From: Chloroflexota bacterium
GTDB lineage: Bacteria; Chloroflexota; Dehalococcoidia; Lucifugimonadales; JACPCL1
Direction: 5' to 3'
DNA: 43,544 nt
Assembly: GCA_016202485.1 (NCBI GenBank)
Contig: JACQOP010000138.1
Location: 1-43,544, forward strand
Both the position numbers and the translations under genes were made by a program. The notes under the pieces were generated by a model, which worked only from the letters and a program-made list of their open reading frames with translations, searched no databases and was not told the origin of the DNA. This document shows, piece by piece, positions 7,552-33,542 of this stretch; positions within the stretch are counted from its first letter, which is position 1; each line of letters starts with the position of its first letter.

Positions 7552-8352
7552 ATGACAGACAGGACAGGCAAGGTATTCAGCGACCTGGTGGATATCCTGG
7601 CAAAGCTGCGCAGCCCGGAGGGGTGCCCCTGGGACCGGGAGCAGACCCACAAGTCCCTGAAGCGGAACCTGCTGGAGGAGTCCTATGAGGTGCTGGAGGC
7701 GATTGACCAGCAGGACTACAAGGCCCTGGCAGAGGAACTGGGGGACGTACTGTTGCAGATTGTATTCCACAGCCAGATGGCCTCGGAAGGGGGGAGGTTC
7801 ACCATAGATGAGGTGGTCGCAGGCATCAGCGAGAAACTGGTACGGCGGCACCCGCATGTATTCGGAGACGCCCAGGTGCAGGACGCGCGGGAGGTGGAGG
7901 CGCAATGGGAGGAACTGAAGCGCCAGGAGCGGCCTGGGGATGGGGGGCAAGGCCCGGAGTCGGCCCTGGGGAAGATACCGGCGGAGCTGCCTGCCCTTGC
8001 CTACAGCCAGCTTGTGCAGGAGCGGGCGGCGCGGATGGGGTTTGACTGGCCGGACCCCTCAGGCGCGCTGGACAAGGTGGCGGAGGAGGTCCAGGAGATT
8101 GCCGAGGCGCCGACGGCTGAGGAGAAGGGCAAGGAGTTTGGGGACCTGCTGTTCTCTCTGGTGAATGCAGGCCGCTGGATGGGGCTGCATGTGGAAGATG
8201 TGCTGCGCCAGGCGAACGGACGCTTTGCCGGGCGTTTCTCTGCGATGGAGCGGCTGGCCAGGGAGCGGGGACATGACTTCAGGGCGTTGCCCCTGGAGCA
8301 GAAGGACGCTCTGTGGGAGGAGGTGAAGAAGGGTGGCGCAGAAGCCGTATGA
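7552..8352 (+). CDS. mazG: Nucleoside triphosphate pyrophosphohydrolase MazG
   Basis: LRSPEGCPWDREQTHKSL and EESYEVLEAID motifs, tandem MazG domains, and SD aaggag 7 nt upstream. Confidence 0.9.
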   Translation: MTDRTGKVFSDLVDILAKLRSPEGCPWDREQTHKSLKRNLLEESYEVLEAIDQQDYKALAEELGDVLLQIVFHSQMASEGGRFTIDEVVAGISEKLVRRHPHVFGDAQVQDAREVEAQWEELKRQERPGDGGQGPESALGKIPAELPALAYSQLVQERAARMGFDWPDPSGALDKVAEEVQEIAEAPTAEEKGKEFGDLLFSLVNAGRWMGLHVEDVLRQANGRFAGRFSAMERLARERGHDFRALPLEQKDALWEEVKKGGAEAV

Positions 8353-18369: not shown

Positions 18370-18918
18370 GTGAAACAGCCTTTACTTCCAGCCTTACCCC
18401 TCCTGCTCCTCCTGCTGCTGGCTGTGCTCCTGGGAGCGGGGTGCGTCACCCAGAGCGCCAGGACGGTGGACGACGAGGTCCGTTCCATCAGCTCCAGCCT
18501 GATGTGCCCGGTGTGCCCGGCGGAGACGGTTGACCAGTCCCAGGTGCCCTTGGCGAAGCAGATGCAGGAGATTGTGCGAGAGAAGGTACAGGCAGGGGAG
18601 TCCCGCCAGGAGATACTGGACTTCTTTGTGGAACGCTACGGCGACCAGGTGCTGGCGGCTCCACCCAAGAGGGGCTTCAACCTGATCGCGTGGGTTGTCC
18701 CCGGCATTGGGCTGTTAGCTGGCGGGGCGCTGGTGGCATACACGGTGCGCAGGATGCGGCGGCCGCAGCGTGGGGAGCAGACCAACCCCTTTGTCTCTGC
18801 CCATAACGGTGAGCCAGATGGGGAGCTGGGGCCGTACCTGACCCAGGTGGATGAGGACCTGCGCCGCCTGCTGGGCGGCCCCGGCCTGGCGGCGGAAGGC
18901 CCTCCGGGGCGAGGGTAG
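18370..18918 (+). CDS. ccmH: Cytochrome c-type biogenesis protein CcmH/NrfF-like
   Basis: LMCPVCPAETVDQS (the CxxC of CcmH), a lipobox-like LLGAGC and a C-terminal TM. GTG start at 18370. Confidence 0.8.
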   Translation: MKQPLLPALPLLLLLLLAVLLGAGCVTQSARTVDDEVRSISSSLMCPVCPAETVDQSQVPLAKQMQEIVREKVQAGESRQEILDFFVERYGDQVLAAPPKRGFNLIAWVVPGIGLLAGGALVAYTVRRMRRPQRGEQTNPFVSAHNGEPDGELGPYLTQVDEDLRRLLGGPGLAAEGPPGRG

Positions 18919-18919
18919 C

Positions 18920-20911
18920 ATGGCCCAGATTGGCACCATTTCCCTCTACATAGCCCTGGCGCTGGCCGTCTATGCCCTAGCGGCGGCGGTGCTGGGCAAG
19001 ACCCGTCGGTCGGCGCAGCTTGTGGAGAGCGCGCGATACGCATCCTATCTGATCCCCGTCATGCTGGGCATAGCGACCCTGGCCCTGGTCTCGGCGTTCC
19101 TGCAGCGAGACTTCAGCGTGAGCTACGTGGCGGCGCATAGCAACCTGGCCATGAACCCCATCTATACGTGGGTGGCCTTCTACGCCGGCAATGAGGGGTC
19201 GTTGCTATATGTGGCCTTTGCCCTGTCCATCTTTGTGGCGCTGGTCGTGGTGTTCCTGCCTTCATCTATGAAGGAGAGCCTACCGGCAACCCTGGCCATC
19301 CTGATGGGCATCATGGTCTTTTTCCTGGTGGTGATGGTTTCGCTGGCCAATCCCTTTGCGGTGCTGGCCAGGCCCCCAGCGGACGGCCAGGGCATCAACC
19401 CGCTGCTTACCCACCCCGGCATGTTTTTTCATCCGCCCATGCTCATGGCGGGCCTCATCAGCATCTCCGTCCCCTTTTCGGTGGTCATGGGCCAGATGGT
19501 TTCCGGCAAGGTAGGAGACGAGTGGGTGGATCTGGCGCGGGCCTGGACACTGGTGGCATGGGCTTTCCTGGGCGTGGGGCTGCTACTGGGTTCCTGGTGG
19601 GCGTATACCATCCTGGGCTGGGGAGGGTACTGGGCCTGGGACCCCATTGAGAACGTGGCGCTGATGCCCTGGCTGGTGCTCACTGCCTTTGTCCACTCCA
19701 TCATGGTGCAAAAGCGACGGGGCATGTTCCGCATGTGGAACGTGGTGCTCATGAACGTCGCCTTCACCTTGGCCCTCTTCGGCATCTTCATCAACCGGGG
19801 CGGGCCGGTGCCATCGGTGCACTCATTCGCCTCTTCGGCCCTGGGCTGGGTGTTTCTGGTGTTCCTGGGAGCGAGCCTGGTCTTCTCCTTTGGCGTCTTC
19901 CTGTGGCGGTTCAACGCCCTGCGGGGCATAGTGTCCCTGGAGTCGTCCCTATCGCGGGAGGCGGCGTTCCTGCTGAACAACCTGCTCTTCCTGGGTGTGA
20001 CCTTTGTCACGCTGTGGGGCGTGGTGTTTCCTCTGGTTTCCCAGGTCTTCCAGGGGGTGACGGTGACGGTAGCCGCCCCCTTCTACAACCAGATCAACGG
20101 GCCGTTATTTCTGGCCTTGTTGCTGCTCATGGGTGTGGGCCCCTTGCTGCCCTGGCGGAGGTCCTCCTGGGCCACGGTGGGCCGGGCCCTGCGGGCGCCG
20201 GCCATAGGAGCGATAGTTGCGATGGCGCTGCTGGCCCTGTTGGGCATCGGCAATCCTTTGGCATTGGTCTCCTTTGGGCTGTGCGCCCTGGTGACGGTGA
20301 GCGTGAGCCAGGAGTGGGTGCGGGGCGTCATGGCCCGGCGTCACCGGGGGGAGAACTACCTCCTGGCCTTTGGGCGGCTTATTGCCGCCAACCGGCCGCG
20401 GTATGGGGGGTACGTGGTGCACCTGGCCATCGTGCTGCTGGCGGTGGGGGTTACCGGCACCACCTTCTTTGGGGCGACGAGGGACGTGAACCTGGCCCCA
20501 GGCGATGAGGTGTCCGTTGGCGGCTATACGGTGTGCTACCTGGGGGAGCGTACCAGGGACTTTGCCGACCGGAGGGAGTTCTTCAACGATTTGCTGGTGA
20601 CCTTGCCCAATGGCAGGGAAATGTACATGACCGCATGGCGGGCCTTTTATCCCGACCAGCGCATTGCCGCGACCCATGCGGCCATCCGCTCCACGCCCCT
20701 GGAGGACCTCTACGTGGTCTCCAGCGAGTCTCTAGAGGATGGACGCGTCGTGTTCCGCATCCTGGTGAACCCTCTGGTGTGGTGGATGTGGGTGGCAGGA
20801 GTGGTGTTCATCCTCGGCACGCTGATCGCCCTGTGGCCCCAGCGGGGATTTGCCCTGGCGCCGGCCTCGTCCAGGGGGCAGGCGGCGGCGCCCGTCAGGG
20901 TTGACCTATGA
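18920..20911 (+). CDS. ccmF: Cytochrome c heme lyase subunit CcmF
   Basis: WWD motif WGGYWAWDPIENVALMPWL in a polytopic protein of about 660 aa. It starts 2 nt after the ccmH stop. Confidence 0.9.
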   Translation: MAQIGTISLYIALALAVYALAAAVLGKTRRSAQLVESARYASYLIPVMLGIATLALVSAFLQRDFSVSYVAAHSNLAMNPIYTWVAFYAGNEGSLLYVAFALSIFVALVVVFLPSSMKESLPATLAILMGIMVFFLVVMVSLANPFAVLARPPADGQGINPLLTHPGMFFHPPMLMAGLISISVPFSVVMGQMVSGKVGDEWVDLARAWTLVAWAFLGVGLLLGSWWAYTILGWGGYWAWDPIENVALMPWLVLTAFVHSIMVQKRRGMFRMWNVVLMNVAFTLALFGIFINRGGPVPSVHSFASSALGWVFLVFLGASLVFSFGVFLWRFNALRGIVSLESSLSREAAFLLNNLLFLGVTFVTLWGVVFPLVSQVFQGVTVTVAAPFYNQINGPLFLALLLLMGVGPLLPWRRSSWATVGRALRAPAIGAIVAMALLALLGIGNPLALVSFGLCALVTVSVSQEWVRGVMARRHRGENYLLAFGRLIAANRPRYGGYVVHLAIVLLAVGVTGTTFFGATRDVNLAPGDEVSVGGYTVCYLGERTRDFADRREFFNDLLVTLPNGREMYMTAWRAFYPDQRIAATHAAIRSTPLEDLYVVSSESLEDGRVVFRILVNPLVWWMWVAGVVFILGTLIALWPQRGFALAPASSRGQAAAPVRVDL

Positions 20912-21354: not shown

Positions 21355-22588
21355 GCGGCGCTCAAATCCAAAGTGGTGGCTCCTGCTGCTCCTGGCCGCG
21401 GTGGCGGTCCTTGTTCTGATGGCAAGGACGACGCGGGCCCAGGAGGCAGGGCCGGCGGTCTCCGGGCAGGTGGTAAATGGCACCGAAGGGAGCGCGGTCC
21501 CGGGAAACCTGGTTATGCTGCTGGAGACCTATTCCGCAGACCAGTTCCTGGGCGCGCGGACTGTCATGGCCGATGAGCAGGGACGGTTCACTTTTGCCGA
21601 CGTCCCCTCCGGCGCGACGGTGTACTATGTGGGGACGGTGCACCTGGGAGTGCCCTATAGCACACCGGTTGAGGCGGACGCCGACCTGTCGGATGTTACT
21701 GTAACCATCTATGAGACAACAGAGACCCTGGACCTGGTGAGCTTTGTCAGCAGCTCCTTGCTTGTAATCGGCGCTGACCCCGAGACCCGCCGCGTCTCCT
21801 TTTTTGAGTTGGTGCAGGTGCGCAATAGCGGCGACCGGACCTTTGTGCCCAACCAGGGCGGCGTCATGGGCTTCCTGCGGTTCCCTTTGCCGGAGGGCGC
21901 GGAAGACCTGGAGGTGCAGGCGGACCTTCCCAGCGGTGAAGCGATCCTGGTGGACCGTGGCGTGGGCCTGACTGCGCCGGTACCGCCGGGAGAGTACAGC
22001 GTGGCTTTTGGCTATGCCCTTCCCTACAAGGGCGACAGCTCGGAGTTTTCCCGCACCTTCCTTGAGGGCATGGGCCGTTTCCGGGTGCTGGTGCCCCAGG
22101 GAGTGGCCCAGGTGACCGGCGATGGGTCTATGACCAGCACAACAACGGCGGTAGAGGGTCTGGCCTTCTGGCTGCTGGAGGCCGTGGACGTGCCGCTTGG
22201 GGGCGCTCTCCGCTTCACCCTTCGTAGCCTGCCACAGCCGACGCTGTGGCAGCGTGTGACCTCGGCTGCCGGCGGAGACGTAGCTGTCTTGGCGGCTCCC
22301 GGGCTCCTGGTAGTGGGTCTGGGACTCCTCCTGCTCCTGGGGGCCTTGCGCAGGGCTGCGCCTGGGGCAGAGGCTCCAGCCCTGGTACCCTCAGACCGGG
22401 GAGGCTTGCTGAGGGCCGTCGCAGCTCTGGATGACGCATGCGAGGCCGGCGAGCTATCGGAGGAGGTATACGACCGGCAGCGGGGTATACTGATGATACG
22501 GCTGCTCCTGCTGGAGCGGCAGGGCTTACCAATCCCCCTTAGTCCCCCTTCCCTGAAGGGAAGGGGGAAAGGAGAAGAGCTACCGTGA
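21347..22588 (+). CDS. Secreted/membrane protein with CarboxypepD_reg-like domain and C-terminal TM
   Basis: Signal peptide, then SGQVVNGTEGSAVPG...GRFTFADVPSG, and a late TM (VAVLAAPGLLVVGLGLLLLLGAL). It overlaps the previous gene by 8 nt. Confidence 0.6.
   Translation: MARRRSNPKWWLLLLLAAVAVLVLMARTTRAQEAGPAVSGQVVNGTEGSAVPGNLVMLLETYSADQFLGARTVMADEQGRFTFADVPSGATVYYVGTVHLGVPYSTPVEADADLSDVTVTIYETTETLDLVSFVSSSLLVIGADPETRRVSFFELVQVRNSGDRTFVPNQGGVMGFLRFPLPEGAEDLEVQADLPSGEAILVDRGVGLTAPVPPGEYSVAFGYALPYKGDSSEFSRTFLEGMGRFRVLVPQGVAQVTGDGSMTSTTTAVEGLAFWLLEAVDVPLGGALRFTLRSLPQPTLWQRVTSAAGGDVAVLAAPGLLVVGLGLLLLLGALRRAAPGAEAPALVPSDRGGLLRAVAALDDACEAGELSEEVYDRQRGILMIRLLLLERQGLPIPLSPPSLKGRGKGEELP
22544..22567. 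repeat. Perfect 10-bp-stem hairpin (cccccttccc tgaa gggaaggggg)
   Basis: Seen directly. It lies in the last codons of the 21347..22588 ORF, just before the tlpA-like GTG. Confidence 0.6.
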
Positions 22589-23148
22589 GCCGGCGGGCTG
22601 TTGCGCTGGCGGCGCTACTGCCCGCAGTAGCACTGTTGGCCCTGTTGGGGTGGGCTCTGGCCAAGTCCGGCGGGCAGCCCGGGGGCTTCGGCATCAACAA
22701 TGTCTTCGGTGAGGTGGAGGCGCGCCCAGGGCCTGCGCCAGCCCTGACACTGACCACTCTGGACGGCCAGGAGGTGACGCTGGAGGACCTGAGGGGCAAG
22801 GTGGTGATGGTGGACTTCTGGAGCTCCTGGTGTCCTCCGTGCGTCGCGGAAGCCCCTGTCCTGGAAGCCACCTACCGCCTGTACAGGGACAAGGGCGTGG
22901 AGTTTGTAGGCGTGGCCATCTGGGATGAGCGGGGAGCCGTGGAAAATCATGTGCGCCTCTTCGGTGTCAGCTACCTCAACGGGCTGGATGACCTGGGCAA
23001 GATAGCGGTAGACTACGGCGTGCGGGGCATCCCGGAGAAGTTCTTCATAGATAGGGAAGGTAACCTGGTGAGGAAGTTCGTAGGGCCGGCCTCAGAGAGA
23101 CAACTGGGGGGTATCCTGGACGCCTTGCTATCACCTGCGGAAGGGTAA
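22585..23148 (+). CDS. Thiol:disulfide oxidoreductase, TlpA/ResA/CcmG family
   Basis: Membrane anchor plus FWSSWCPPCVAEAP (thioredoxin CxxC). Confidence 0.85.
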   Translation: MSRRAVALAALLPAVALLALLGWALAKSGGQPGGFGINNVFGEVEARPGPAPALTLTTLDGQEVTLEDLRGKVVMVDFWSSWCPPCVAEAPVLEATYRLYRDKGVEFVGVAIWDERGAVENHVRLFGVSYLNGLDDLGKIAVDYGVRGIPEKFFIDREGNLVRKFVGPASERQLGGILDALLSPAEG

Positions 23149-23557: not shown

Positions 23558-24652
23558 ATGCGCAAGTATCACATCGTGACCATTGCGGGCGACGGCATCG
23601 GGCCGGAGATACTGGAGTCGGCGCTGGCGGTGCTGGCCCGGGTACAGGAGCTTTCGGGGGAGTTCGCGCTGGAGTACGAGGAGAGGGAGGGCGGCGCCGC
23701 GTGCTATGAGCGGCACGGGGTCAATCTGTCCAAAGAGTCCCTGGAGGCGTGCCGCACCGCAGACAGCGTGCTCAAGGCCCCCGTGGGCCTGCCCTGGGTG
23801 CGTTACCCCGATGGCACAGAAGCTGGGCTGCTGGGGGGCGTGCTTCGCAACGGCCTGGATCTGTACGCCAACGTGCGGCCGGTGAAGCTGTGGCCGGGGG
23901 TGGACGCGCCCATCAAGGCCAAGGCCGGAGAGATTGACTACGTGATCATCCGGGAGAATACTGAGGGACTGTACCTCTCCCGCGGACTGGGGGTAGGGAA
24001 CGACGAGGCGATGGCCGATATGCTGCTCATGACCCGCAAGGGCGTGGAGCGGGTGTGCCGTTTCGCTTTTGAGGCGGCCCGCAAACGCAGCGGCAGCCCC
24101 TCCGACGGCGTGCGGCGGGTCACCTGCGTTGACAAAAGCAACGTGCTCCGCTCCTTCGCCTTCTTCCGCCGCATCTTCCAGGAGGTGGGGGAGCAGTACC
24201 CGGATATAGAGCAGGACTTCCTGTACTCCGATGCAGCGGGGCAGGACCTGGTGCGCCGGCCCTGGCGCTTTGATGTGCTGGTAATGGAGAATTTTTTGGG
24301 CGACTTGTTAAGCGATTTAGGGGGAGGAACGGTGGGAGGGTTGGGCATGTGCCCCAGTGGAAACATCGGCGAGGGGGCCAGCTACTTTGAGCCTATCCAC
24401 GGCACTGCGCCGGACATCGCCGGCAAAGGTGTGGCCAATCCGCTGTCCCAGGTGCTGGCGGCGGCCATGATGCTGGACCACCTGGGGGAAACGGCGGCGG
24501 GCACGATGATACGGGACGCCGTGTGGGAGGCGCTGGTGCAGGAGGACCTGGTTATCCAGGCCAGTGGCCAGCCAAGGGGCGGCTCCCGGACAGCTACGGA
24601 GGCTATCCTGCGGCACTTGCGCCATGGGGTCGGGCCGCAGCGCGAACACTAA
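23558..24652 (+). CDS. Isocitrate/3-isopropylmalate/tartrate dehydrogenase family protein
   Basis: N-terminus HIVTIAGDGIGPEI and a NFLGDLLSDLGGG motif. Length about 364 aa. Substrate was not assigned. Confidence 0.85.
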   Translation: MRKYHIVTIAGDGIGPEILESALAVLARVQELSGEFALEYEEREGGAACYERHGVNLSKESLEACRTADSVLKAPVGLPWVRYPDGTEAGLLGGVLRNGLDLYANVRPVKLWPGVDAPIKAKAGEIDYVIIRENTEGLYLSRGLGVGNDEAMADMLLMTRKGVERVCRFAFEAARKRSGSPSDGVRRVTCVDKSNVLRSFAFFRRIFQEVGEQYPDIEQDFLYSDAAGQDLVRRPWRFDVLVMENFLGDLLSDLGGGTVGGLGMCPSGNIGEGASYFEPIHGTAPDIAGKGVANPLSQVLAAAMMLDHLGETAAGTMIRDAVWEALVQEDLVIQASGQPRGGSRTATEAILRHLRHGVGPQREH

Positions 24653-24665
24653 CGGAGTGTTTCCT

Positions 24666-25406
24666 ATGACTCTTTATTTGCACGAAATTGCAGAGACCAA
24701 TCACCGAATCCTCAATCCATTTACTGAAGATAAGCTGATGCTCCTTGGTGAGATTTGTCATCTCAAACCAGGGATGCGTCAGCTTGACCTTGCTTGCGGC
24801 AAGGGGGAAATGCTGTGCCAATGGGCGCGGCACTGGGGTATTCATGGTATCGGTGTGGACATCAGTAAAGTGTTTCTTATGGCTGCACACCAGCGCGCCG
24901 AGGAATTAGGAGTAGTCGATCAAGTAACGTTTATGGCAAGTGATGCCAGCCAATATGTTGCCGAAGCACGTAGCTTTGACATAGTTAGTTGCATCGGTGC
25001 AACCTGGATTGGAAATGGGTTGGCTGGAACACTTCAGTTGATGTTGCCAGGGGTGAAAGACGGTGGACTGGTGCTGGTTGGTGAACCATATTGGATAGAT
25101 GAGCCGCCAGACGAGGCCTATGAAGGGACTAACATTAGGAAAGACGATTTCACTTCTCTCAAAGGTACCCTGGACCGTATTGAGTCTGTTGGCTTGGAAC
25201 TAGTTGAAATGGTGGCGGCAAACACTGACACGTGCGACAGATATGTTGCCTCACAATGGTGGACGCTCAGCGAATGGTTGCATAGCAATCCTTCCGATCC
25301 CCGTGCATTCGCTGTCCGAGAAATGCTCATACGCGACCGACGGAACTATTTGCAATATGAACGGCGCTATTTGGGATGGGGAGTATTCGTACTGAAAGCA
25401 AAGTAA
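24666..25406 (+). CDS. Class I SAM-dependent methyltransferase
   Basis: Motif I LDLACGKGE. The gene looks more AT-rich by eye than its neighbours. Confidence 0.8.
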   Translation: MTLYLHEIAETNHRILNPFTEDKLMLLGEICHLKPGMRQLDLACGKGEMLCQWARHWGIHGIGVDISKVFLMAAHQRAEELGVVDQVTFMASDASQYVAEARSFDIVSCIGATWIGNGLAGTLQLMLPGVKDGGLVLVGEPYWIDEPPDEAYEGTNIRKDDFTSLKGTLDRIESVGLELVEMVAANTDTCDRYVASQWWTLSEWLHSNPSDPRAFAVREMLIRDRRNYLQYERRYLGWGVFVLKAK

Positions 25407-25495: not shown

Positions 25496-26626
25496 ATGAC
25501 GTCTTTTCGCCTGCGCTGCATTGAATGCGCTGCTCTCCATGACGCCGGTGTACGCACCCTTGCCTGCCGCCGGTGCGGGTCGCCTCTAGAGGTGCTGTAT
25601 GAGGGTGATGGCCCTTCCTATGACGCCGATTTCTCTGGCATATGGGGCCTGGGCGCGCTCCTGCCCATAGGCGACCGGTCTTGCATCGTTTCCCTGGGGG
25701 AAGGCAATACCCCAGTGGTGCGCCTGGAAGGGGTGGGGCGGGGGCTGGGCCTGGTTAGCCTTTGGGGGAAGCTAGAGTACCAGGCTCCCACCGGTTCTTT
25801 CAAAGACCGGGGCACGACGGTGCTGATGTCGGCGCTGAAGGAGGCGGGGGTCAGGGAGATCGTGGAGGACTCCTCTGGCAATGCGGGGGCGTCCCTAGCG
25901 GCCTACGCCGCCCGGGCGGGCGTGGTCGCCCATATTTTTGCTCCCTCCTCGGCGCCGGTAGCAAAGCTCCAGCAGATACAGGTGTATGGGGCGAAGGTGC
26001 ATACGGTGGACGGCTCCCGGGAGGCCGCTACTGAGGCAGCCAAGGAGTTTGCTGAAGAGCGGGGATTGGTCTATGCGTCTCACAACCTCAGCTCGTATGT
26101 CGCTGAGGGCACCAAGACCTTCGCCTACGAGATAGCCCAGCAGATGGCGGGCCGTATGCCCCGGCACGTGGTCATCCCGGTAGGCAACGGCTCCCTGCTC
26201 ATTGGGGCGTGGAAGGGGTTTTTGGAGCTGCGGGCCAAGGGGGTCATCGCCGAGATGCCACACCTCTACGGCGTGCAGGCAGAGGTGGTGCAGCCCATCG
26301 CTGCGGCCTACGAGGGCCGGGAGTGGCGTCCCCAGGAAGGCTCTCGTACCATTGCCGGGGGTATTTCTGTGGGCCAGCCGCCGCGCCTGCGCCAGGCCCT
26401 GCGGGCTATGCAAGAGACGGGGGGACGTCCTGTGGCGGTAACGGACGAGGCGATCCTGCGGTGGCAACTGGCCCTGGCGCGCCAGGAGGGCATCTACGCC
26501 GAGCCGACCTCGGCGGCGGCCTTTGCGGGACTGGAGGCCCTGGTGAGCCTGGGCTTCATTGCGGCTGGGGATACGGTGCTGGCGCCGGTAACGGGCATTG
26601 GCCTGAAGGATGCGCCGCCGGTGTAG
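25496..26626 (+). CDS. thrC: Threonine synthase (short form with N-terminal zinc ribbon)
   Basis: CIEC...CRRC ribbon, PLP-lysine motif TGSFKDRG and SSGNAGAS. Confidence 0.85.
   Translation: MTSFRLRCIECAALHDAGVRTLACRRCGSPLEVLYEGDGPSYDADFSGIWGLGALLPIGDRSCIVSLGEGNTPVVRLEGVGRGLGLVSLWGKLEYQAPTGSFKDRGTTVLMSALKEAGVREIVEDSSGNAGASLAAYAARAGVVAHIFAPSSAPVAKLQQIQVYGAKVHTVDGSREAATEAAKEFAEERGLVYASHNLSSYVAEGTKTFAYEIAQQMAGRMPRHVVIPVGNGSLLIGAWKGFLELRAKGVIAEMPHLYGVQAEVVQPIAAAYEGREWRPQEGSRTIAGGISVGQPPRLRQALRAMQETGGRPVAVTDEAILRWQLALARQEGIYAEPTSAAAFAGLEALVSLGFIAAGDTVLAPVTGIGLKDAPPV
26579..26624 (+). repeat. 46-bp direct repeat, copy 1 (thrC 3' end)
   Basis: ctggcgccggtaacgggcattggcctgaaggaTgcgccgccggtgt is identical to 29914..29959 except for one base. 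Confidence 0.95.
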
Positions 26627-26661
26627 TCGCAAACTACTTCAGAGAATTGTGTCGCAGGGTA

Positions 26662-26692
26662 TTGAGCTTCTAGTTACTGGAAGGTCTATTGT
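26662..26692 (+). promoter_or_regulatory. MerR-family-type promoter/operator (19-bp spacer)
   Basis: TTGAGC-19 nt-TATTGT. The imperfect dyad AGCTTCT-N7-GGAAGGT spans the -35 element and spacer, in the same register as CueR/MerR-type operators. Confidence 0.5.
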
Positions 26693-26797
26693 TTGTCTGC
26701 AACGTTGCACATCACTGGATGCAAGGAGAATGGGCCATGAAGGGGATCAGCAAGAAGAAGTGCCCGCTGTGTGGAGCCTAGGGCTACGCCCTTGATC

Positions 26798-26833
26798 CTT
26801 TCCCTTCTGCCCAGGCCTGGGCAGAAGGGAAAG
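26798..26833. repeat. Perfect 36-bp palindrome
   Basis: ctttcccttctgcccagg|cctgggcagaagggaaag has 18-bp arms, no loop and no following T-tract. Confidence 0.9.
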
Positions 26834-26912
26834 CCGGGATGAGGGTGGGGTACAGGCCTTACAGTTTGGAGAAGGCCGATTGTCGTCTTAGCAAGTATTC
26901 TTGGGGGTGATT

Positions 26913-27350
26913 ATGCGTATAGGAGTGCTGGCACGCGTTACGGGCATACTTGCCAGGACTATCCGCTTCTACGAGGCAGAGGGTTTGCTGGCTGAACCAA
27001 GGCGAACTGAGGGAGACTACCGGGACTATGATGCGGCGGCTGTGGAGCGGCTGGTGTTTATCAAGAAGGCCCGCCTATTGGGCCTGTCGTTGAAGGAGGT
27101 AGGGAGCGTCCTTCAGCTTCATGAACGGCAGGAACCGACGTGTGTACACGTCCGAGCATTGCTGGATGACAAACTATCCCAGGTGGAAAGGGCTATCCAG
27201 GAACTGCTGGCCTTCCGTGAGGAGCTGGTGCGGCTGAAGGCCCGGGCGGGCACGTTAGAGGACTGCTGCCCGACGGGAGGAAGCGTGTGCGGGATCATTG
27301 AAGGGTGGGAAACAGTGCGAGTGGTCACAGCAGGAGGACTGCATGAGTAA
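26913..27350 (+). CDS. merR: MerR-family heavy-metal-responsive transcriptional regulator
   Basis: N-terminal [27 protein letters not shown]. There is a Cys at the start of the dimerisation helix (EPTCVHV) plus a C-terminal CCPTGGSVC. The stop overlaps the merA start (ATGAGTAA). Confidence 0.85.
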
Positions 27351-28752
27351 CTATGACCTGGTCATTATTGGGGGGGGGGGTGCAGCGGCCTTTGCCGCAG
27401 CAACCAAGGCAGCAGACCTGGGAAGGAGCGCCCTGATGATCAATCACGGCCTGCCCCTGGGTGGTACCTGCGTCAACGTGGGGTGCATGCCCAGCAAGCA
27501 CCTGCTTGCGGTAGGGGATGAGCTGTGCTACCCCCAGCACCCCCGTTTCCAGGCGCTCCAGGATGGACACCACCCGTCACTGGACTTTGCTGAGGCAGTC
27601 CAAAGCAAGAATGAAATGGTGGCCCGGGCGCGGCAGGCCAACTATGAACGAGTGTTGGAGCACCTGGACGCGGTGGACTACGTGGAGGGGAAGGCCCGGC
27701 TGGCGGGGCCTCGGCAGGTGGAGGCCAACGGGCAGGTGTATGAAGGGGGGAAGGTGCTCATTGCTACCGGTTCTTCAACGAGACAGTTGCCAATTCCAGG
27801 GCTGGACAAGGTGCGGTGGCTGAACAATGTTTCGGCTATGGAGCTAACCCGGCTGCCTGCATCGCTGGTGATCATTGGCGCGGGACCCCTTGGCCTGGAG
27901 TTTGCCCAGATGTTTGCCCACCTTGGAAGCAAGGTAACGGTGCTGGAGGCTATGGAGCAGGTTTTGCCACGGGAGGAGCCGGAGGTGGCCCAGGAGCTGC
28001 AACGGTCCTTGGAAGCGGAAGGCATTGCGTTCCACCTGGGGGTTCGTGTGCAACAGGTTGCGGAACGGAATGGGAGGAAGGTGGTCACCTTCAGCGATGG
28101 AGAGCACATCCATGAAGCCGTTGGAGAGGAGCTGCTGCTGGCTGCGGGGGTCCAGGCCAACACTGCTGGCTTGGACCTAGAAGAAGCTGGGGTCAAGTTG
28201 GAAAGGGGCGGATTTATTGAGGTGGACCAGTTCTATCAAACGGCCAACCCGAGCATCTTTGCTGCGGGGGACTGCATTGGGAAGATGGCGCTGGAGACGG
28301 TAGCTGCAAAAGAGGGGGCTTACGCCGCAGAGAACGCCCTCACCGTGCCGGTGCGGACCGTCAACTATGACCATGTCCCCCATGCGGTGTTCACTAACCC
28401 CCAGGTGGCGTCGGTGGGCCTGACGGAGGAAGAGGAGATGCGGCGGTTCAATAGCTGCGCTTGCCGTACCGTCTACATGGACGCCGTCCCCAAGGCCCTG
28501 GCCATCAACGAAGACCGGGGCGTGTTCAAGATGGTGATTCACCCGCGCAGCTCCAAAATCCTGGGGGTGCACATCGTTGCTCCCCATGCGGCGGACCTTA
28601 TCCACGAGGCTGCCCTGGCGGTGAAGTTTGGCCTCACTGTAGACGACATCATAGATACCGTCCATGTGTTTCCAACCTTCAGCGAGGGAATTAAACGGGC
28701 GGCCCAGGCCTTTACGCGGGATGTTTCACTGATGAGCTGCTGCGTGGAATAG
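27343..28752 (+). CDS. merA: Mercuric reductase, core type without N-terminal HMA domain
   Basis: FAD motif [10 protein letters not shown], redox site [13 protein letters not shown] and a C-terminal vicinal Cys pair (LMSCCVE). Confidence 0.85.
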
Positions 28753-28762
28753 GGTGACCTCT

Positions 28763-28888
28763 ATGCCGGTAGTTATCGGGCTCTTGGTGTGCTGTGTTGT
28801 ACTCACCCTTTTTGTGTTGGGTGCTGCGCTAGGGCTAAGGGGGCCGGACAAGCATAAGGGGAGTGGCCTGATTGAGAAGGGGAGGTGA
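28763..28888 (+). CDS. 41-aa single-TM peptide with vicinal Cys pair (not in ORF track)
   Basis: The translation is MPVVIGLLVCCVVLTLFVLGAALGLRGPDKHKGSGLIEKGR. The ATG lies 11 nt after the merA stop with agggtga upstream. The stop lies within the SD region of the next gene. Confidence 0.45.
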   Translation: MPVVIGLLVCCVVLTLFVLGAALGLRGPDKHKGSGLIEKGR

Positions 28889-28895
28889 GGCGGCA

Positions 28896-29489
28896 ATGAA
28901 GCAAGAGCACATGTGGGTCCCTTTGAGCGCCCTTTTGCTCGTAACCATCGGATGTGGTGGACTGGCACAGCCGGAAGCTACGGCGACGCCTACAACCGCA
29001 ATGAGTATGCCTACAGTCTCTCCAACTCCTATGGACATGCCCATGGACTCGGCCAGCTCACAGGCCGGCCCCCCGCTGGTGATGGGCTATTACGGGGGAC
29101 AGCCTATGCTGTTTATTCATACCGAGGCGTCGGACATGGCTGTAGCAGAGATGCTCACGATGATGATGGGATCCAAGGTCTTAGTAGTCTCTAGCCTTAG
29201 CGGCGTACCTGATGAGTTGCTGGCAGATGTGTTTGTGTTCACAAACGGAGTCAGAGGTGACGGCCCTTTTGGGTATCAGCCCGACGTATTTGACCAGAGC
29301 CCTGATGAGGAAGGGTATACCCCGTTGCGGCGTGTGAATCTAGTTGTGTGGCAGGAAGGAGTGGTGGCAACGGAGTTGCGCTCGGCCAATGCGGTCAACG
29401 CCGCAATTGTGCGAGGGGAGGTCACCGTCACTCGCCCGGGTGTTGTAGTGAATATGCCCATCATTACCTGGCTTGGAGGCCAAAGATAG
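28896..29489 (+). CDS. Met-rich lipoprotein of unknown function
   Basis: SD ggaggtga 7 nt upstream, lipobox LVTIGC, Met-rich linker MSMPTVSPTPMDMPMD, then a globular domain of about 140 aa. Confidence 0.7.
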   Translation: MKQEHMWVPLSALLLVTIGCGGLAQPEATATPTTAMSMPTVSPTPMDMPMDSASSQAGPPLVMGYYGGQPMLFIHTEASDMAVAEMLTMMMGSKVLVVSSLSGVPDELLADVFVFTNGVRGDGPFGYQPDVFDQSPDEEGYTPLRRVNLVVWQEGVVATELRSANAVNAAIVRGEVTVTRPGVVVNMPIITWLGGQR

Positions 29490-29597
29490 CGAGCGACCAT
29501 CAACGCTCAATGCAGAAGGTGTGCTATGAGACGGTTGCTACACCTAGAGAACCTGTTTTTGCCCGTGCAGGGGTTGCTGCCCCTGCCGTGGTGATGA

Positions 29598-29855
29598 GTG
29601 GTCCCTGGCTTGCTCGGCCTCCTGGGCGCTAGCGGGGCTGGGCTTGCTCTGGCGCCCGCGTTGCGGGTGCTGACCTATCCATTGCTGGCCCTGACGGTGC
29701 TGACCCTGGGCCGGGGCTGGTATCTGCAGCTCCGTCATAAAGCTGCCACGCCCTGGCGTATGCGGTCGCGCTGGATATTGCTTACGTCCACTGCGCTGGG
29801 TGTGGGACTGTGGGCCTTGCGGTTTGCGGGATTGCTTGGTGCGAGGCCCTTTTGA
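29598..29855 (+). CDS. Small hydrophobic protein (about 3 TM, no Cys)
   Basis: GTG start immediately after tandem TGA TGA. It is the last ORF of the mer cassette. Function unknown. Confidence 0.4.
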   Translation: MVPGLLGLLGASGAGLALAPALRVLTYPLLALTVLTLGRGWYLQLRHKAATPWRMRSRWILLTSTALGVGLWALRFAGLLGARPF

Positions 29856-29862
29856 GAGGTGG

Positions 29863-29961
29863 GGGCTGGAGACCCTTGTGTGCCGTAGCATTATTCCGCT
29901 GGGGGACACGATCCTGGCGCCGGTAACGGGCATTGGCCTGAAGGACGCGCCGCCGGTGTGA
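29863..29961 (+). pseudogene. Orphan 3' fragment of a thrC-like gene
   Basis: It translates to GLETLVCRSIIPLGDTILAPVTGIGLKDAPPV*. The intact thrC ends GLEALVSLGFIAAGDTVLAPVTGIGLKDAPPV*. No upstream thrC body is present. Confidence 0.75.
29914..29959 (+). repeat. 46-bp direct repeat, copy 2
   Basis: See 26579..26624. It matches at 45 of 46 positions. Confidence 0.95.
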
Positions 29962-29977
29962 GGCAGTCCAGTGAGGG

Positions 29978-30310
29978 CTACCGGGTCGCGGTTGGTTCCT
30001 TGGGCCAGGGCTTTTGCTCGGGGTCAAGGACGAGGTGATATTTCATTTGCTCCTGTTTGCCGCTCTTGAAGGTAACGGTGATACCTATGGTGAACTCCCC
30101 CCACCCAGAGGTCTCCAAGGCAAACTTGTCTTCGCTGCTGGTACGCACCTGGTACGGCTCTGGAAAGGACGAATGCAAGAAATACTCCACTTGCTGGATC
30201 TCTTGCAGCCGTACTGTCGGCTCGTTGACAAAGACGCGCCAGCGGTAATATTGGCGGCCGCTGACGGTGACACCTAAATCCTTGGAGTAGTTGTTGAATT
30301 GTATGGCCAT
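29978..30310 (-). CDS. Prokaryotic YEATS (pYEATS)-like domain protein
   Basis: YYRWRVFVNEP...LQEIQQVEYFLHSSFPEPYQVR...KFALETSGWGEFTIGITVTFKSG fits the remembered pYEATS pattern (W.W.v, VeY.LHptFp, F.l...gWG.F.i). SD aggtgagg precedes ATG 30310. Confidence 0.65.
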   Translation of the reverse strand: MAIQFNNYSKDLGVTVSGRQYYRWRVFVNEPTVRLQEIQQVEYFLHSSFPEPYQVRTSSEDKFALETSGWGEFTIGITVTFKSGKQEQMKYHLVLDPEQKPWPKEPTATR

Positions 30311-30322
30311 GAGTCGCCTCAC

Positions 30323-30811
30323 CTAATCTGGGACATGAATGGCATCCCTTATCGTAGCCAGTGGAGTGAACCAGCGGACCTGCCACCGGTCGCCGTTCTT
30401 TTCCTTGAGCCTTAACTGGATATAGTCCGTAGGGCTGACGCTAGGCAGTAGGATACACTGCCATCCGCCCGGCCCCAGCGTAGGGAGCAGCTTGCCACGC
30501 TCCTTAGTCTGATTACTGTTCCCTTCCTTCAGTTCGTAGTTGCATTCCTCTGAGTCCAGGTCTACGGTTCCGTTTTCTCTGTCAGGAAAGCGCAAAGTGA
30601 CTGAGACCTGGCCTTTGGGGCGAATGGAGTCCCGGAAGGCAAAGATAACCGCGCCCAGAATCTCCACAATGCCTGCACCAATGAGCCATCGGAAGTAGTC
30701 AGGATCAGCCCTTGGGAAGAGTCCAAGTCCTACCAGGATTGCCGCAAGAAAGGTGCCCAGCAGGATGATTAGGAATGCGGCGAGTATTGCGTACCGCTCT
30801 CTCAGAGTCAC
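30323..30811 (-). CDS. 2-TM membrane protein with a soluble C-terminal domain of about 100 aa
   Basis: GTG start with SD gaggtga 6 nt upstream. The stop lies 12 nt before the pYEATS-like ATG. The gene looks more AT-rich by eye than its flanks. Confidence 0.65.
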   Translation of the reverse strand: MTLRERYAILAAFLIILLGTFLAAILVGLGLFPRADPDYFRWLIGAGIVEILGAVIFAFRDSIRPKGQVSVTLRFPDRENGTVDLDSEECNYELKEGNSNQTKERGKLLPTLGPGGWQCILLPSVSPTDYIQLRLKEKNGDRWQVRWFTPLATIRDAIHVPD

Positions 30812-32467: not shown

Positions 32468-32962
32468 CTATACCTTTGTGTTTTTGCCCAGGTCCCACCC
32501 GCCGGCCACAGCCGAGCCCAAAGTCCCATCGGAGCTTTGTGGGGAGTACTTCCACTCAATTTTGCTGAAGTTGAAGCTGATTTCCTCCAGAGGTAACGTC
32601 TCTCCTCCCTTGGCGTTTCCTCCTGGCCTGACGGAGGAGATGATGACGTCGGTCATCTTGTACTCCAGGTATTGCTGCTGGGCCCCATCGGTCTTCTGGA
32701 ACTGTATGGTGACCTCTGGGATGTGTTCCCCGCTGGCGCAGGCCAGCATCAGGAGGGGAGTGGACTTGTCCAGGGATTTCACCACCGTGAAGTTGCTGAA
32801 ACTAGCCCGCTCGGCAGTCCCCGCCGCCGAGGATGAGACGGCGCTGGAAGGCTGGGTAACCCCAAAGCTGTAGGACAGGATATTTATCCAGTCTTTGTGC
32901 TTGAGTTGGTCCGTGCTTTCGCCGGGAATGGAGCCTATCTTGATAAATGCATCAAAGGCCAT
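32468..32962 (-). CDS. hcp: Hcp (T6SS tube protein TssD family)
   Basis: MAFDAFIKIGSIPGES..., DKSTPLLMLACASGEHIP and ISFNFSKIEWKY align by eye along the whole length with P. aeruginosa Hcp1 (MAVDMFIKIGDVKGES, DKSTPNLMMACSSGKHYP). SD aggagg. Confidence 0.9.
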   Translation of the reverse strand: MAFDAFIKIGSIPGESTDQLKHKDWINILSYSFGVTQPSSAVSSSAAGTAERASFSNFTVVKSLDKSTPLLMLACASGEHIPEVTIQFQKTDGAQQQYLEYKMTDVIISSVRPGGNAKGGETLPLEEISFNFSKIEWKYSPQSSDGTLGSAVAGGWDLGKNTKV

Positions 32963-33542
32963 TTTTAACCTCCTGTGTTGGAACGTCTGCTGGTGAGAAT
33001 ACCAGGTCAAAGGTGAACTCCGCTGTGCCGTCCCCGCCTAACTCCTGGGGACGTTGCTTAGCCAGATAGGTGCCCTTAGCGCCGGCGTAGCGGCCAGTCC
33101 CGGCGACCACCGTGTAGAGGTCATGCCCGGTTCTGGATGCCCTGCTTGTGCCCATGCCGAGAAGGGCGCCGTCCAGCAGGTTAAAGGTGTGGACCTCTAT
33201 CCTGGTGGCGGCAAAGGGGGTGGGGCCAAAGGGGGAGCCTATGGACAGGCAGTTGGAATAAAACTCGCCCAGCTTTAGGTCTTTTGACTCGTTGAGTAGT
33301 TCACCATACATCACCATCTGGTCTCCCATGACTGGCAACTCTCCCTGCTTGTGGTCCTGGGAGTAGAGGTGCCAGTGACGGCCATTCAGCCTCAGAGGGG
33401 TCTTAGACAGCAACGAGGGGGGGCCGATAACAGCGGCGCCGACACCGGAGCTCTTAAAGGCTACGGCGGCCCCTGCGGCTGCCAGGAGAATAGCCGCCCG
33501 TTTCAAGAAACTGCGCCTGGGGGCTTTTGCTGCATCTCTCAT
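32952..33542 (-). CDS. Tat-exported protein, dirigent/allene-oxide-cyclase-barrel-like
   Basis: PRRSFLKRAAILLAAAGAAVA Tat signal and a VVAGTGRYAGAKGT motif. It overlaps the hcp start by 11 nt. Confidence 0.65.
   Translation of the reverse strand: MRDAAKAPRRSFLKRAAILLAAAGAAVAFKSSGVGAAVIGPPSLLSKTPLRLNGRHWHLYSQDHKQGELPVMGDQMVMYGELLNESKDLKLGEFYSNCLSIGSPFGPTPFAATRIEVHTFNLLDGALLGMGTSRASRTGHDLYTVVAGTGRYAGAKGTYLAKQRPQELGGDGTAEFTFDLVFSPADVPTQEVKNGL

Follow-up and report, generated by a model that had tools for sequence, protein, structure and literature searches.

Directly behind the mercuric reductase gene merA in a 43,544-nucleotide contig of a Chloroflexota bacterium (assembly GCA_016202485.1, contig JACQOP010000138.1; hereafter the window) lies an open reading frame (ORF) for a 41-residue peptide, MPVVIGLLVCCVVLTLFVLGAALGLRGPDKHKGSGLIEKGR, which runs from an ATG at 28763 to a TGA at 28886-28888. 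Comparison with related loci indicates that this peptide is a member of an unannotated small-protein family of Chloroflexota, encoded in mercury and redox gene clusters, whose members combine a single transmembrane (TM) helix with a vicinal cysteine pair (CC). A sequence-only reading of the window had placed a 41-residue transmembrane peptide with a vicinal Cys pair just after merA, and both its coordinates and its translation were confirmed here. Our best reading of its function, which we hold with about even confidence, is that of an exofacial Hg(II)-binding relay peptide that would be kept reduced by redoxins and would pass Hg(II) to a polytopic membrane protein and then to MerA.

The peptide gene and its family

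Using the window MerA as query, we gathered loci from reference genomes (77) and from metagenomes (80), designated by L-numbers, among which the near relatives of the window locus stem almost exclusively from metagenome-assembled genomes of Chloroflexota or Dehalococcoidia. A detector for ORFs of 25-95 aa with a CC that lies within a 19-residue window of mean hydropathy of at least 1.9, and no more than 30 residues from the start, was applied to 110 loci of the MerA clade (755 kb). It returned 19 ORFs on the merA strand, all downstream of merA, versus a single one on the opposite strand, and 20 dinucleotide shuffles yielded 1.9 +/- 1.4 such ORFs with both strands summed. The ORFs of this kind in related MerA loci encode 31-85 aa, with an N-terminal helix, the CC at positions 9-16 and then a Lys/Arg cluster. 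Seven members (those of the window, L001, L122, L005, L004, L018 and L029) begin 9-35 nt past the merA stop, and L164, a locus found via the peptide, copies the L018 layout, its ORF starting 19 nt after a truncated ORF taken as the merA 3' end. A purine-rich run resembling a Shine-Dalgarno (SD) element (GGGAG, AAGGAG, GGAGG and others) is present 5-10 nt upstream in most of the 23 members examined, and the stop codons of these members vary between TGA, TAA and TAG.

The metagenome relatives of the window MerA, none above 83-90% identity, are too distant for a ratio of non-synonymous to synonymous substitution rates (dN/dS) on the window's own peptide, and closer pairs from other subfamilies served for the analogous pN/pS ratio instead. 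Over the first 31 codons, five of the six L064-group pairs gave pN/pS values of 0-0.4 and the remaining one, which holds few changes, gave 0.77, and in the tail the values were mostly 0.8-1.1 (range 0.43-7.05); the L018/L164 pair gave 0.24 for the first 31 codons and 0.30 for the tail. Length and frame are preserved throughout in both sets. Taken together, the strand bias, the SD-like runs, the varied stops and the pN/pS values indicate that this class of ORF is translated and that its helix is under purifying selection. The window ORF is a genuine gene, and the opposing account, in which it is a non-functional chance ORF in GC-rich DNA or a spacer coupling merA to the next gene, is extremely unlikely. 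It is true that the ORF is short, that a collection of 15 billion proteins lacks its exact sequence and that its nearest homologues are just ~30-35% identical; however, the 19:1 bias in strand and position against about two ORFs expected, the invariant CC, the SD motifs, the variable stops, the constrained helix and the 40 related small-protein clusters in public data all argue against chance.

Family members have 29-87 aa. A short N-terminus, which is neutral or acidic, leads into a single TM helix, the CC is located 9-16 residues from the start, and the helix gives way to a Lys/Arg cluster followed by a variable disordered tail. In alignments of 15-19 members, which have a mean identity of 25-30%, the CC pair is the sole invariant feature; the sequence-only reading had staked its claim on the recurrence of the ORF and its CC pair in homologous cassettes, and both recur. 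A Pro 3-4 residues past the CC (CCxxP or CCxxxP) is found in ~90% of members but not in those of the window, L004 and L071. At least six relatives (P0013, P0022, P0026, P0036, P0046 and that of L013) have a further CC towards the C-terminus (for example ...DACCKL...), which the window peptide does not have.

A profile search of 5.8 billion proteins recovered 16 relatives, all of them small, Pfam-less and either unnamed or called 'hypothetical protein', and HMMER, run in full over 1.84 billion representatives, gave 42 matches at E <= 1e-3. Single-helix CC peptides of 29-108 aa, typically of the form ME-x-LL...ACCGLPLL...K/R, account for 40 of the 42; the other two are repeat-rich, unrelated proteins and were set aside. 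When ten family peptides were looked up exactly in the 15-billion-protein collection, eight were absent, the window's included, and one of the two found bears the name 'hypothetical protein'; family genes are mostly uncalled in annotation. Pfam gave no match at E <= 10 for any of 15 members, an NCBIfam search on the family gave no meaningful match, and the family profile had no match in the PDB at E <= 10. A single-sequence homology search with the 44-aa peptide, a length that corresponds to an alternative in-frame GTG start at 28754, also gave no match, with too few five-residue words in common. Our literature searches yielded no account of single-helix CC peptides within mer operons, which agrees with the earlier proposal that the peptide was previously undescribed. 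A search for selenocysteine (Sec) variants of the peptide (TGA-Cys, Cys-TGA and TGA-TGA between hydrophobic runs) recovered only the MerT-like gene described below and noise, so the family appears to be Cys-only in this sample.

The window peptide conforms to the family both in design (41 aa, CC at residues 10-11, helix 2-25, basic flank) and in context, being encoded on the same strand directly after merA as in L001, L122, L005, L018 and L029. With an alignment of 15 sequences as input, AlphaFold2 predicts a single helix spanning residues 2-25, with block means of the predicted local distance difference test (pLDDT) of 88-93, and a disordered tail. The best 19-residue window of the peptide has a mean Kyte-Doolittle hydropathy of 2.99 and there is only one hydrophobic segment, which bears out the earlier observation that the peptide is shorter and has fewer helices than MerT, MerF and MerE. 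Its C-terminal flank, RGPDKHKG, is basic, with a charge of +2 over 12 residues. The nearest relatives are the peptides behind the two closest MerAs, L001 (MLIALGAVVCCLLVPAVLGIAAMVGLRKP...) and L122 (MLAIALFVCCIATPLLLGLASFLGLRD...), which are ~30-35% identical to the window peptide and have V-C-C and LGLR in common with it. The gap between the merA stop (TAG, 28750-28752) and the peptide ATG is 10 nt and, as had been proposed from the letters of the window, a GGGTGA SD-like element precedes the start and the ORF ends inside the SD region of the following DUF7482 gene (ATG 28896), whose GGGAGG (28880-28885) lies in the last codons of the peptide. Read-through of the peptide's TGA stop was considered and rejected because family stops include TGA, TAA and TAG and because the continuation overlaps DUF7482 out of frame.

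Gene neighbourhoods in the window and in related loci

The peptide gene of the window belongs to a compact cassette on the forward strand, with the following features.

26527-26624, + strand: left copy of a 98-nt direct repeat, formed by the thrC 3' end (repeat search, 83% identity, spacing 3335 nt)
26913-27350, + strand: merR, a MerR-family regulator with C-terminal Cys residues (TCVHV...); Pfam MerR_1 2.5e-17, MerR-DNA-bind 3.2e-16
27343-28752, + strand: merA, core mercuric reductase of 469 aa; NCBIfam TIGR02053 and Pfam Pyr_redox_2, Pyr_redox_dim
28752-28757, + strand: GGGTGA Shine-Dalgarno-like element, 5 nt 5' of the peptide ATG
28763-28888, + strand: CC peptide ORF, 41 aa, single-pass, with vicinal Cys10-Cys11, helix over residues 2-25 and a basic disordered tail
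28896-29489, + strand: DUF7482 lipoprotein-like gene; Pfam DUF7482 E 9.5e-23, signal peptide end ...LLVTIGC
29526-29855, + strand: MerT-like three-helix ORF with TGA-TGA (29592-29597), 109 codons, ~640 bases downstream of the peptide
29862-29959, + strand: right copy of the thrC 3'-end repeat, just 3' of the TGA-TGA gene

The product of merA is a true MerA (TIGR02053, 542.7 bits versus a cut-off of 454.45) that has no N-terminal HMA domain and ends in ...MSCCVE. Its start overlaps the merR stop (ATGAGTAA), and no terminator-like site was found between merA, the peptide and the next gene. The two 98-nt repeat copies, nearly identical over their final ~50 nt, flank merR, merA, the peptide, DUF7482 and the MerT-like gene, and this bracketing suggests that the mer cassette was inserted at the thrC 3' end; in the syntenic locus L058, merR-merA follows thrC with one repeat copy and none of the three downstream genes. 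Homologues of the DUF7482 gene occur near merA in L008, L012, L021 and L022.

Linkage to merA extends beyond the window. The merA-peptide order is kept in the window, in L001 and in L122, at MerA identities of 83-100%, and a flanking phosphodiesterase gene is common to the three. The genes between the peptide and the phosphodiesterase gene differ: the window has the DUF7482 and MerT-like genes, and downstream of the peptide in L001 and L122 stands an apparently TGA-split ORF pair, peroxiredoxin-like by eye only, which in L001 spans 7568-8137 and is split after ...FYRGHW; L001 also has a small Cys-rich ORF downstream. The position immediately behind merA varies within the clade and holds the gene for the peptide, for a MerE-like CPC protein, for a TGA-TGA MerT-like protein, for a 180-aa Cys-bearing membrane protein or for an HMA protein. 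This pattern fits a mercury-handling role for the occupant. The MerE-like CPC, TGA-TGA and HMA occupants look to be Cys- or Sec-containing metal proteins. Elsewhere, the peptide co-occurs with the MerE-like (CPC) protein, the TGA-TGA protein or other polytopic Cys proteins.

Three kinds of protein that recur around these merA genes can be described further. The CPC-motif membrane proteins (GLVACPCHLPLTLPLLLG) of ~84-125 aa, which match MerE weakly and below threshold (E 0.0012 in Pfam and 2.9e-4 in NCBIfam), are a frequent alternative in the post-merA slot: they begin 22-61 nt past merA in L080, L003, L110, L012, L086, L107 and L034, and are also present in L032, L020, L002 and L158. A soluble protein with a GGGCCAV motif, HMA-like by eye, is encoded near merA in L002 (~1690-1950), L046 (4941-5249), L022, L053, L078 and L110. 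The 180-aa membrane protein, with ATACPICN and a C-terminal NCCV, occurs in L008, L011, L020 and L021. Neither of the latter two has a Pfam match, the GGGCCAV protein never having been scanned against a family library.

The peptide is also linked to redoxins. In three loci found by peptide similarity alone (L158, L160 and L165), it directly follows a membrane-anchored TlpA/AhpC-type redoxin, and behind redoxin-adjacent peptides there is often a membrane protein of 260-300 aa that bears NPC and SC motifs, together with a MerE-like CPC protein. The 260-300 aa polytopic neighbour has no match to DsbD/CcdA in Pfam, nor to any other family, and 'CcdA-like' is a descriptive label only. In L166 and L167, the peptide follows a split pair of ORFs (80 + 79 aa) that resembles, by likeness only, the TGA-split redoxin of L164, and a cytochrome c-like gene lies downstream. 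The order in L005 is merA, peptide and a redoxin whose FPG-TGA-PTC active site has the U-x-x-C selenoprotein form; in L164, and in L018 by cluster membership, a gene of ~163 aa stands between the peptide and the FPG-TGA-PTC redoxin. These redoxin modules lie in mer or metal clusters together with merA, MerR or ArsR, HMA, MerE-like proteins and P-type ATPases.

The TGA-split TlpA-like redoxins (FPG-TGA-PTC) of the sister mer clusters lie at 982-1536 in L164 and at ~7560-8150 in L005, and L150 (~427-640) encodes an HMA protein with KIHCEG-TGA-V (CxxU). Selenocysteine seems, from these reading frames, to be widely used in Chloroflexota mercury clusters. The TlpA-like gene of the window itself (22585-23148) was considered as a partner for the peptide and found unsupported: it lies just 3' of CcmF (18851-20911) and hence probably belongs to a cytochrome c maturation cluster.

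These neighbourhoods bear on an alternative that assigns the peptide to an extracytoplasmic thiol-disulfide system, either as a component or as a client, in which it would serve as a redox relay, adaptor or assembly factor instead of an Hg carrier. The commonest neighbour of the members found independently of merA is indeed a TlpA/AhpC-type redoxin directly upstream, the NPC/SC membrane protein of 260-300 aa is often next, and L166 and L167 have the cytochrome c-like gene downstream. We nevertheless consider it unlikely, given that the redoxin modules themselves sit in mer or metal clusters, that the window, L001 and L122 keep the merA-peptide pair without an adjacent TlpA-like gene (though the downstream split ORF pair in each of L001 and L122 looks peroxiredoxin-like by eye), that the polytopic protein has no DsbD/CcdA match in Pfam and that, to our knowledge, single-helix CC peptides are not used by any thiol-disulfide system.

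The second membrane protein gene of the window cassette was split in the ORF track because of an in-frame TGA-TGA. Its frame opens at ATG 29526 and reads MRRLLHLENLFLPVQGLLPLPW-TGA-TGA-VVPGLLGLLGASGAGL..., so that an 85-aa, two-helix ORF (29598-29855) forms its tail, and the TGA pair, in the context LPLPW-TGA-TGA-VVPGLLGLLGASGAG, sits where MerT has its CC. Motif and layout mirror MerT helix 1 (CCLGPLVLIALGFSGAW), and the profile matches are weak and in register (NCBIfam MerTP, E 0.0017, 18 bits versus a cut-off of 180; Tn501 MerT, 47 columns, P 0.0035), with no Pfam MerT match. The motif LPLPW-TGA-TGA-V(V/I/A)P and a conserved N-terminal extension are present in all 11 loci with the gene, usually right after merA. 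In the 17 codons 5' of the TGAs, pN/pS is 0.53 in frame versus 0.94 and 2.14 in the other frames, and it is 0.44 downstream. In L026, GTC follows the TGAs and the conserved VVPGLLGL comes before any possible start codon. These observations support translation of the entire frame, with constraint on the protein on either side of the TGA pair.

Database homologues of the C-terminal part of this ORF number 87, of which 73 are at least 80 aa long, all of these 80-92 aa except one of 112 aa; the five short homologues with sequence read all start just past the TGA pair. The names supplied are 'hypothetical protein' except for one JGI 'cytochrome bd-type quinol oxidase subunit 2'. None of the 87 has a Pfam domain or a Cys at the TGA position, and the single full-length call, a JGI protein, reads WWW, with TGA translated as Trp. 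A hairpin ~14-58 nt past the first UGA, examined as a possible SECIS element, folds in 8 of 10 sequences (z-scores -4.3 to +0.6), its pair counts not exceeding those of shuffles (72.7% paired) in sequences where coding constraint leaves few informative changes; Rfam gave no match in 26500-30100, and a tRNA scan of the window gave tRNA-Pro only. We regard the ORF as a candidate vicinal di-selenocysteine (UU) Hg(II) transporter, a reading indirectly supported by the sister loci, as these carry the redoxin with FPG-TGA-PTC and the HMA protein with CEG-TGA. At a contig end in L111 (~950-1032), LPLPW-TGG-TGA stands in place of TGA-TGA, either as a single-Sec variant or as a sequencing error.

Other features of the window were observed in passing. 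The gap between thrC and merR contains a perfect palindrome of 18 + 18 nt (CTTTCCCTTCTGCCCAGG/CCTGGGCAGAAGGGAAAG, 26798-26833), which could be a terminator or regulatory site, and just 5' of it is a tiny ORF, MKGISKKKCPLCGA (26737-26781), in a stretch 75% conserved with L058. Two stretches are missing from the otherwise syntenic L058. One holds a prokaryotic YEATS-domain gene (29978-30811, - strand; pYEATS, E 1.8e-21) paired with a 162-aa gene that has an N-terminal hydrophobic stretch (by eye) and no family match, and the other is a SAM-dependent methyltransferase gene (24564-25406, + strand) between an isopropylmalate-dehydrogenase-like gene and thrC. Farther downstream, this apparent Chloroflexota genome encodes a homologue of the Hcp type VI secretion effector (32468-33010, - strand; Pfam T6SS_HCP, 5.7e-42).

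A proposed exofacial Hg(II) relay

The N-terminal flank of the peptides has a charge of 0 or -1, and over the 12 residues past the helix the charge, which lies between -1 and +6, is positive in 20 of the 23 members. Under the positive-inside rule, these flank charges predict an N-out, C-in topology which, with the cysteines at residues 10-11, would place the CC in the outer leaflet. The catalytic domain of the membrane-anchored redoxins would likewise face outward, given their basic N-terminus and one anchor helix. In the relay that we favour, the two outer-leaflet thiols of the peptide would bind Hg(II) on the outside of the membrane, making the peptide a membrane-embedded equivalent of MerP or of MerT helix 1 in a cell without a periplasm. 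From the peptide, Hg(II) would pass by ligand exchange to a polytopic Cys/Sec membrane protein, which here would be the MerT-like TGA-TGA protein and elsewhere a MerE-like CPC protein or another Cys membrane protein, and would finally arrive at the C-terminal Cys pair of MerA. The exofacial Cys pair would be held reduced by TlpA-like redoxins anchored in the membrane, several of them of the U-x-x-C form, and variants with two CC pairs may relay Hg(II) to their own cytoplasmic tail. Hg(II) binding, the direction of the hand-off and the role of the redoxins are what we infer from sequence features and gene order.

Several observations weigh against this relay. The distant syntenic locus L058 has thrC-merR-merA followed directly by the phosphodiesterase gene, so MerA can be kept without the peptide. 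About half of the peptide loci show no polytopic partner in the available sequence, and the window cassette has no redoxin of its own, the nearest being at 22585-23148. Tight pairing with redoxins suits a redox role as much as a metal role. Likeness to MerF and MerT is limited to one helix and statistically weak (alignment probabilities of 47% and 20%). The window peptide is also among the most divergent members of the family, reading CCVVLT, with Thr in place of the near-invariant Pro, and having no cytoplasmic Cys.

The sequence-only reading had proposed that the peptide replaces merT/merP in this cassette. This was not upheld, because the cassette carries the MerT-like three-helix ORF with TGA-TGA (29526-29855), along with the DUF7482 lipoprotein gene, whose product could act as an extracellular binding protein. 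A stronger form of that proposal, in which oligomers of the peptide would act on their own as a minimal Hg(II) importer in place of MerT/MerP, is quite unlikely. A vicinal CC within a TM helix as in MerT and MerF, aligned in register, would suit an importer, as would the lack of a polytopic partner in the available sequence of L001, L004, L005, L019 and L037 and the second tail CC of five members, which would allow a two-site relay within one peptide. However, many contigs are too short to rule out partners, the window cassette has the MerT-like and lipoprotein genes, and the CC is predicted in the outer leaflet, ~15 residues from the cytoplasmic end of the helix, in a window peptide that has no cytoplasmic Cys to take up Hg(II). 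With the CC so placed and no cytoplasmic Cys, autonomous uptake by the window peptide seems less likely than capture and hand-off.

Capture could also be an end in itself. As a sacrificial thiol buffer of the membrane, the peptide would soak up outer-leaflet Hg(II) with no directed transfer, a role to which its single metal site, its variable tail evolving near-neutrally and the lack of a fixed partner gene would be suited. We judge this very unlikely: a stoichiometric sink would be costly beside a catalytic reductase, and the peptide gene's conserved position right behind merA, close to the following gene or overlapping it, points to co-expression in balance with the components of the pathway. 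The relay of Hg(II) from peptide to polytopic protein to MerA stays our preferred reading. Its extension to a hitherto undescribed uptake system of monoderm Chloroflexota, assembled from tiny and selenium-containing parts, in which an exofacial CC peptide, an FPG-U-PTC redoxin, a UU MerT-like importer and a core MerA without NmerA would act together, is more doubtful and is offered tentatively.

Models of mercury resistance rest almost wholly on proteobacterial and firmicute operons (MerT, MerP, MerC, MerF and MerE), and surveys of mer diversity ask how lineages with merA only or merRA only, such as Chloroflexota, bring Hg(II) to the reductase. Our survey suggests that such Chloroflexota cassettes are not transporter-less and that their genes have been missed by annotation, being either too short, as for the CC peptide, or UGA-containing, as for the MerT-like protein, the redoxin and the HMA protein. 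The families of the CC peptide and of the putative UU transporter are both unannotated in public databases; the former gives a marker by which mer loci in Chloroflexota metagenomes from groundwater and marine sites can be re-annotated, and the latter would be a rare bacterial case of two adjacent selenocysteines. If the proposed function is true, no known protein dedicated to handling Hg(II) would be smaller than the CC peptide, which would also offer a simple one-helix model of how thiols relay metal within membranes.

Relation to known mercury-handling and redox systems

By its features and its tie to merA, the CC peptide appears to belong with the vicinal-thiol membrane proteins of mer systems, as a previously undescribed one. 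Among the nearest known systems is MerF (PF11431; PDB 2M67, 2MOZ, 2LJ2, 2H3O and 1WAZ), which is also a small mer membrane protein with a CC and then a Pro in helix 1 (LVALCCFTPVLV). An hhalign comparison of the family profile with MerF residues 15-36 (22 columns; sequence checked against PDB 2M67) gave an in-register alignment in which the CC pairs coincide, as do the Pro residues, at P 1.9e-4 and a probability of 47%. Some family members match the second, C-terminal CC of MerF, which the window peptide lacks. MerF comprises 81 aa in two helices, and its published NMR structures have both termini and both CC pairs facing the cytoplasm. The family peptides, by contrast, have one helix and a predicted N-out orientation, and the window peptide has no Pro; with no Pfam match for 15 members, no PDB match and one helix instead of two, the family does not fall within MerF.

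In MerT (PF02411), the CC-x-x-P motif lies within helix 1, as it does in the family, and both are encoded in mer operons. The family profile aligned in register with helix 1 of Tn501 MerT at P 0.0012 and a probability of 20%, the Tn501 sequence used having been confirmed as MerT by Pfam (2.4e-64). At that probability, homology is not established, and since MerT has 116 aa, three helices and a cytoplasmic Cys pair, the peptide would correspond to helix 1 at most. Membership of MerT is not supported by Pfam or NCBIfam, in which the family has no match, nor by the single helix and the lack of a Cys pair between helices 2 and 3. For the MerT-like ORF of the window, the relevant comparison is with the MerT-family selenoproteins (NCBIfam NF045683, MerT_CopZ_Se), in which Sec replaces a metal-binding Cys of a MerT-like membrane protein, as proposed here. 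The known representatives have CU or C/SxxU and one Sec (Haft 2022, preprint 10.1101/2022.07.06.499078; PMC9312934; PMC13188914), whereas the window gene has two adjacent TGAs (UU) and no Cys homologue; we found no mention of a UU MerT in the literature.

MerE (PF05052) is, like the peptide, a small Cys-bearing mer membrane protein, and MerE-like CPC proteins fill the post-merA slot in sister loci. It has a CPC motif, two helices and 78 aa, as opposed to the CC of the peptide, and the family peptides gave no Pfam or NCBIfam match to it. In proposed role, the counterparts are MerP and related HMA metallochaperones, as first extracytoplasmic Hg(II) acceptors handing the metal to a membrane transporter. 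MerP, however, is a soluble periplasmic protein with a beta-alpha-beta-beta-alpha-beta fold and a CxxC motif, the peptide is a TM helix with a CC, and the two have no sequence relationship.

The pairing with redoxins has its parallel in copper delivery, where TlpA reduces the metal-binding cysteines of ScoI and CoxB. The metal and the fold of the client are others, and the likeness is drawn here from gene adjacency alone; what the two systems would have in common is a membrane-anchored thioredoxin-like reductase encoded together with a membrane-anchored carrier of a Cys pair.

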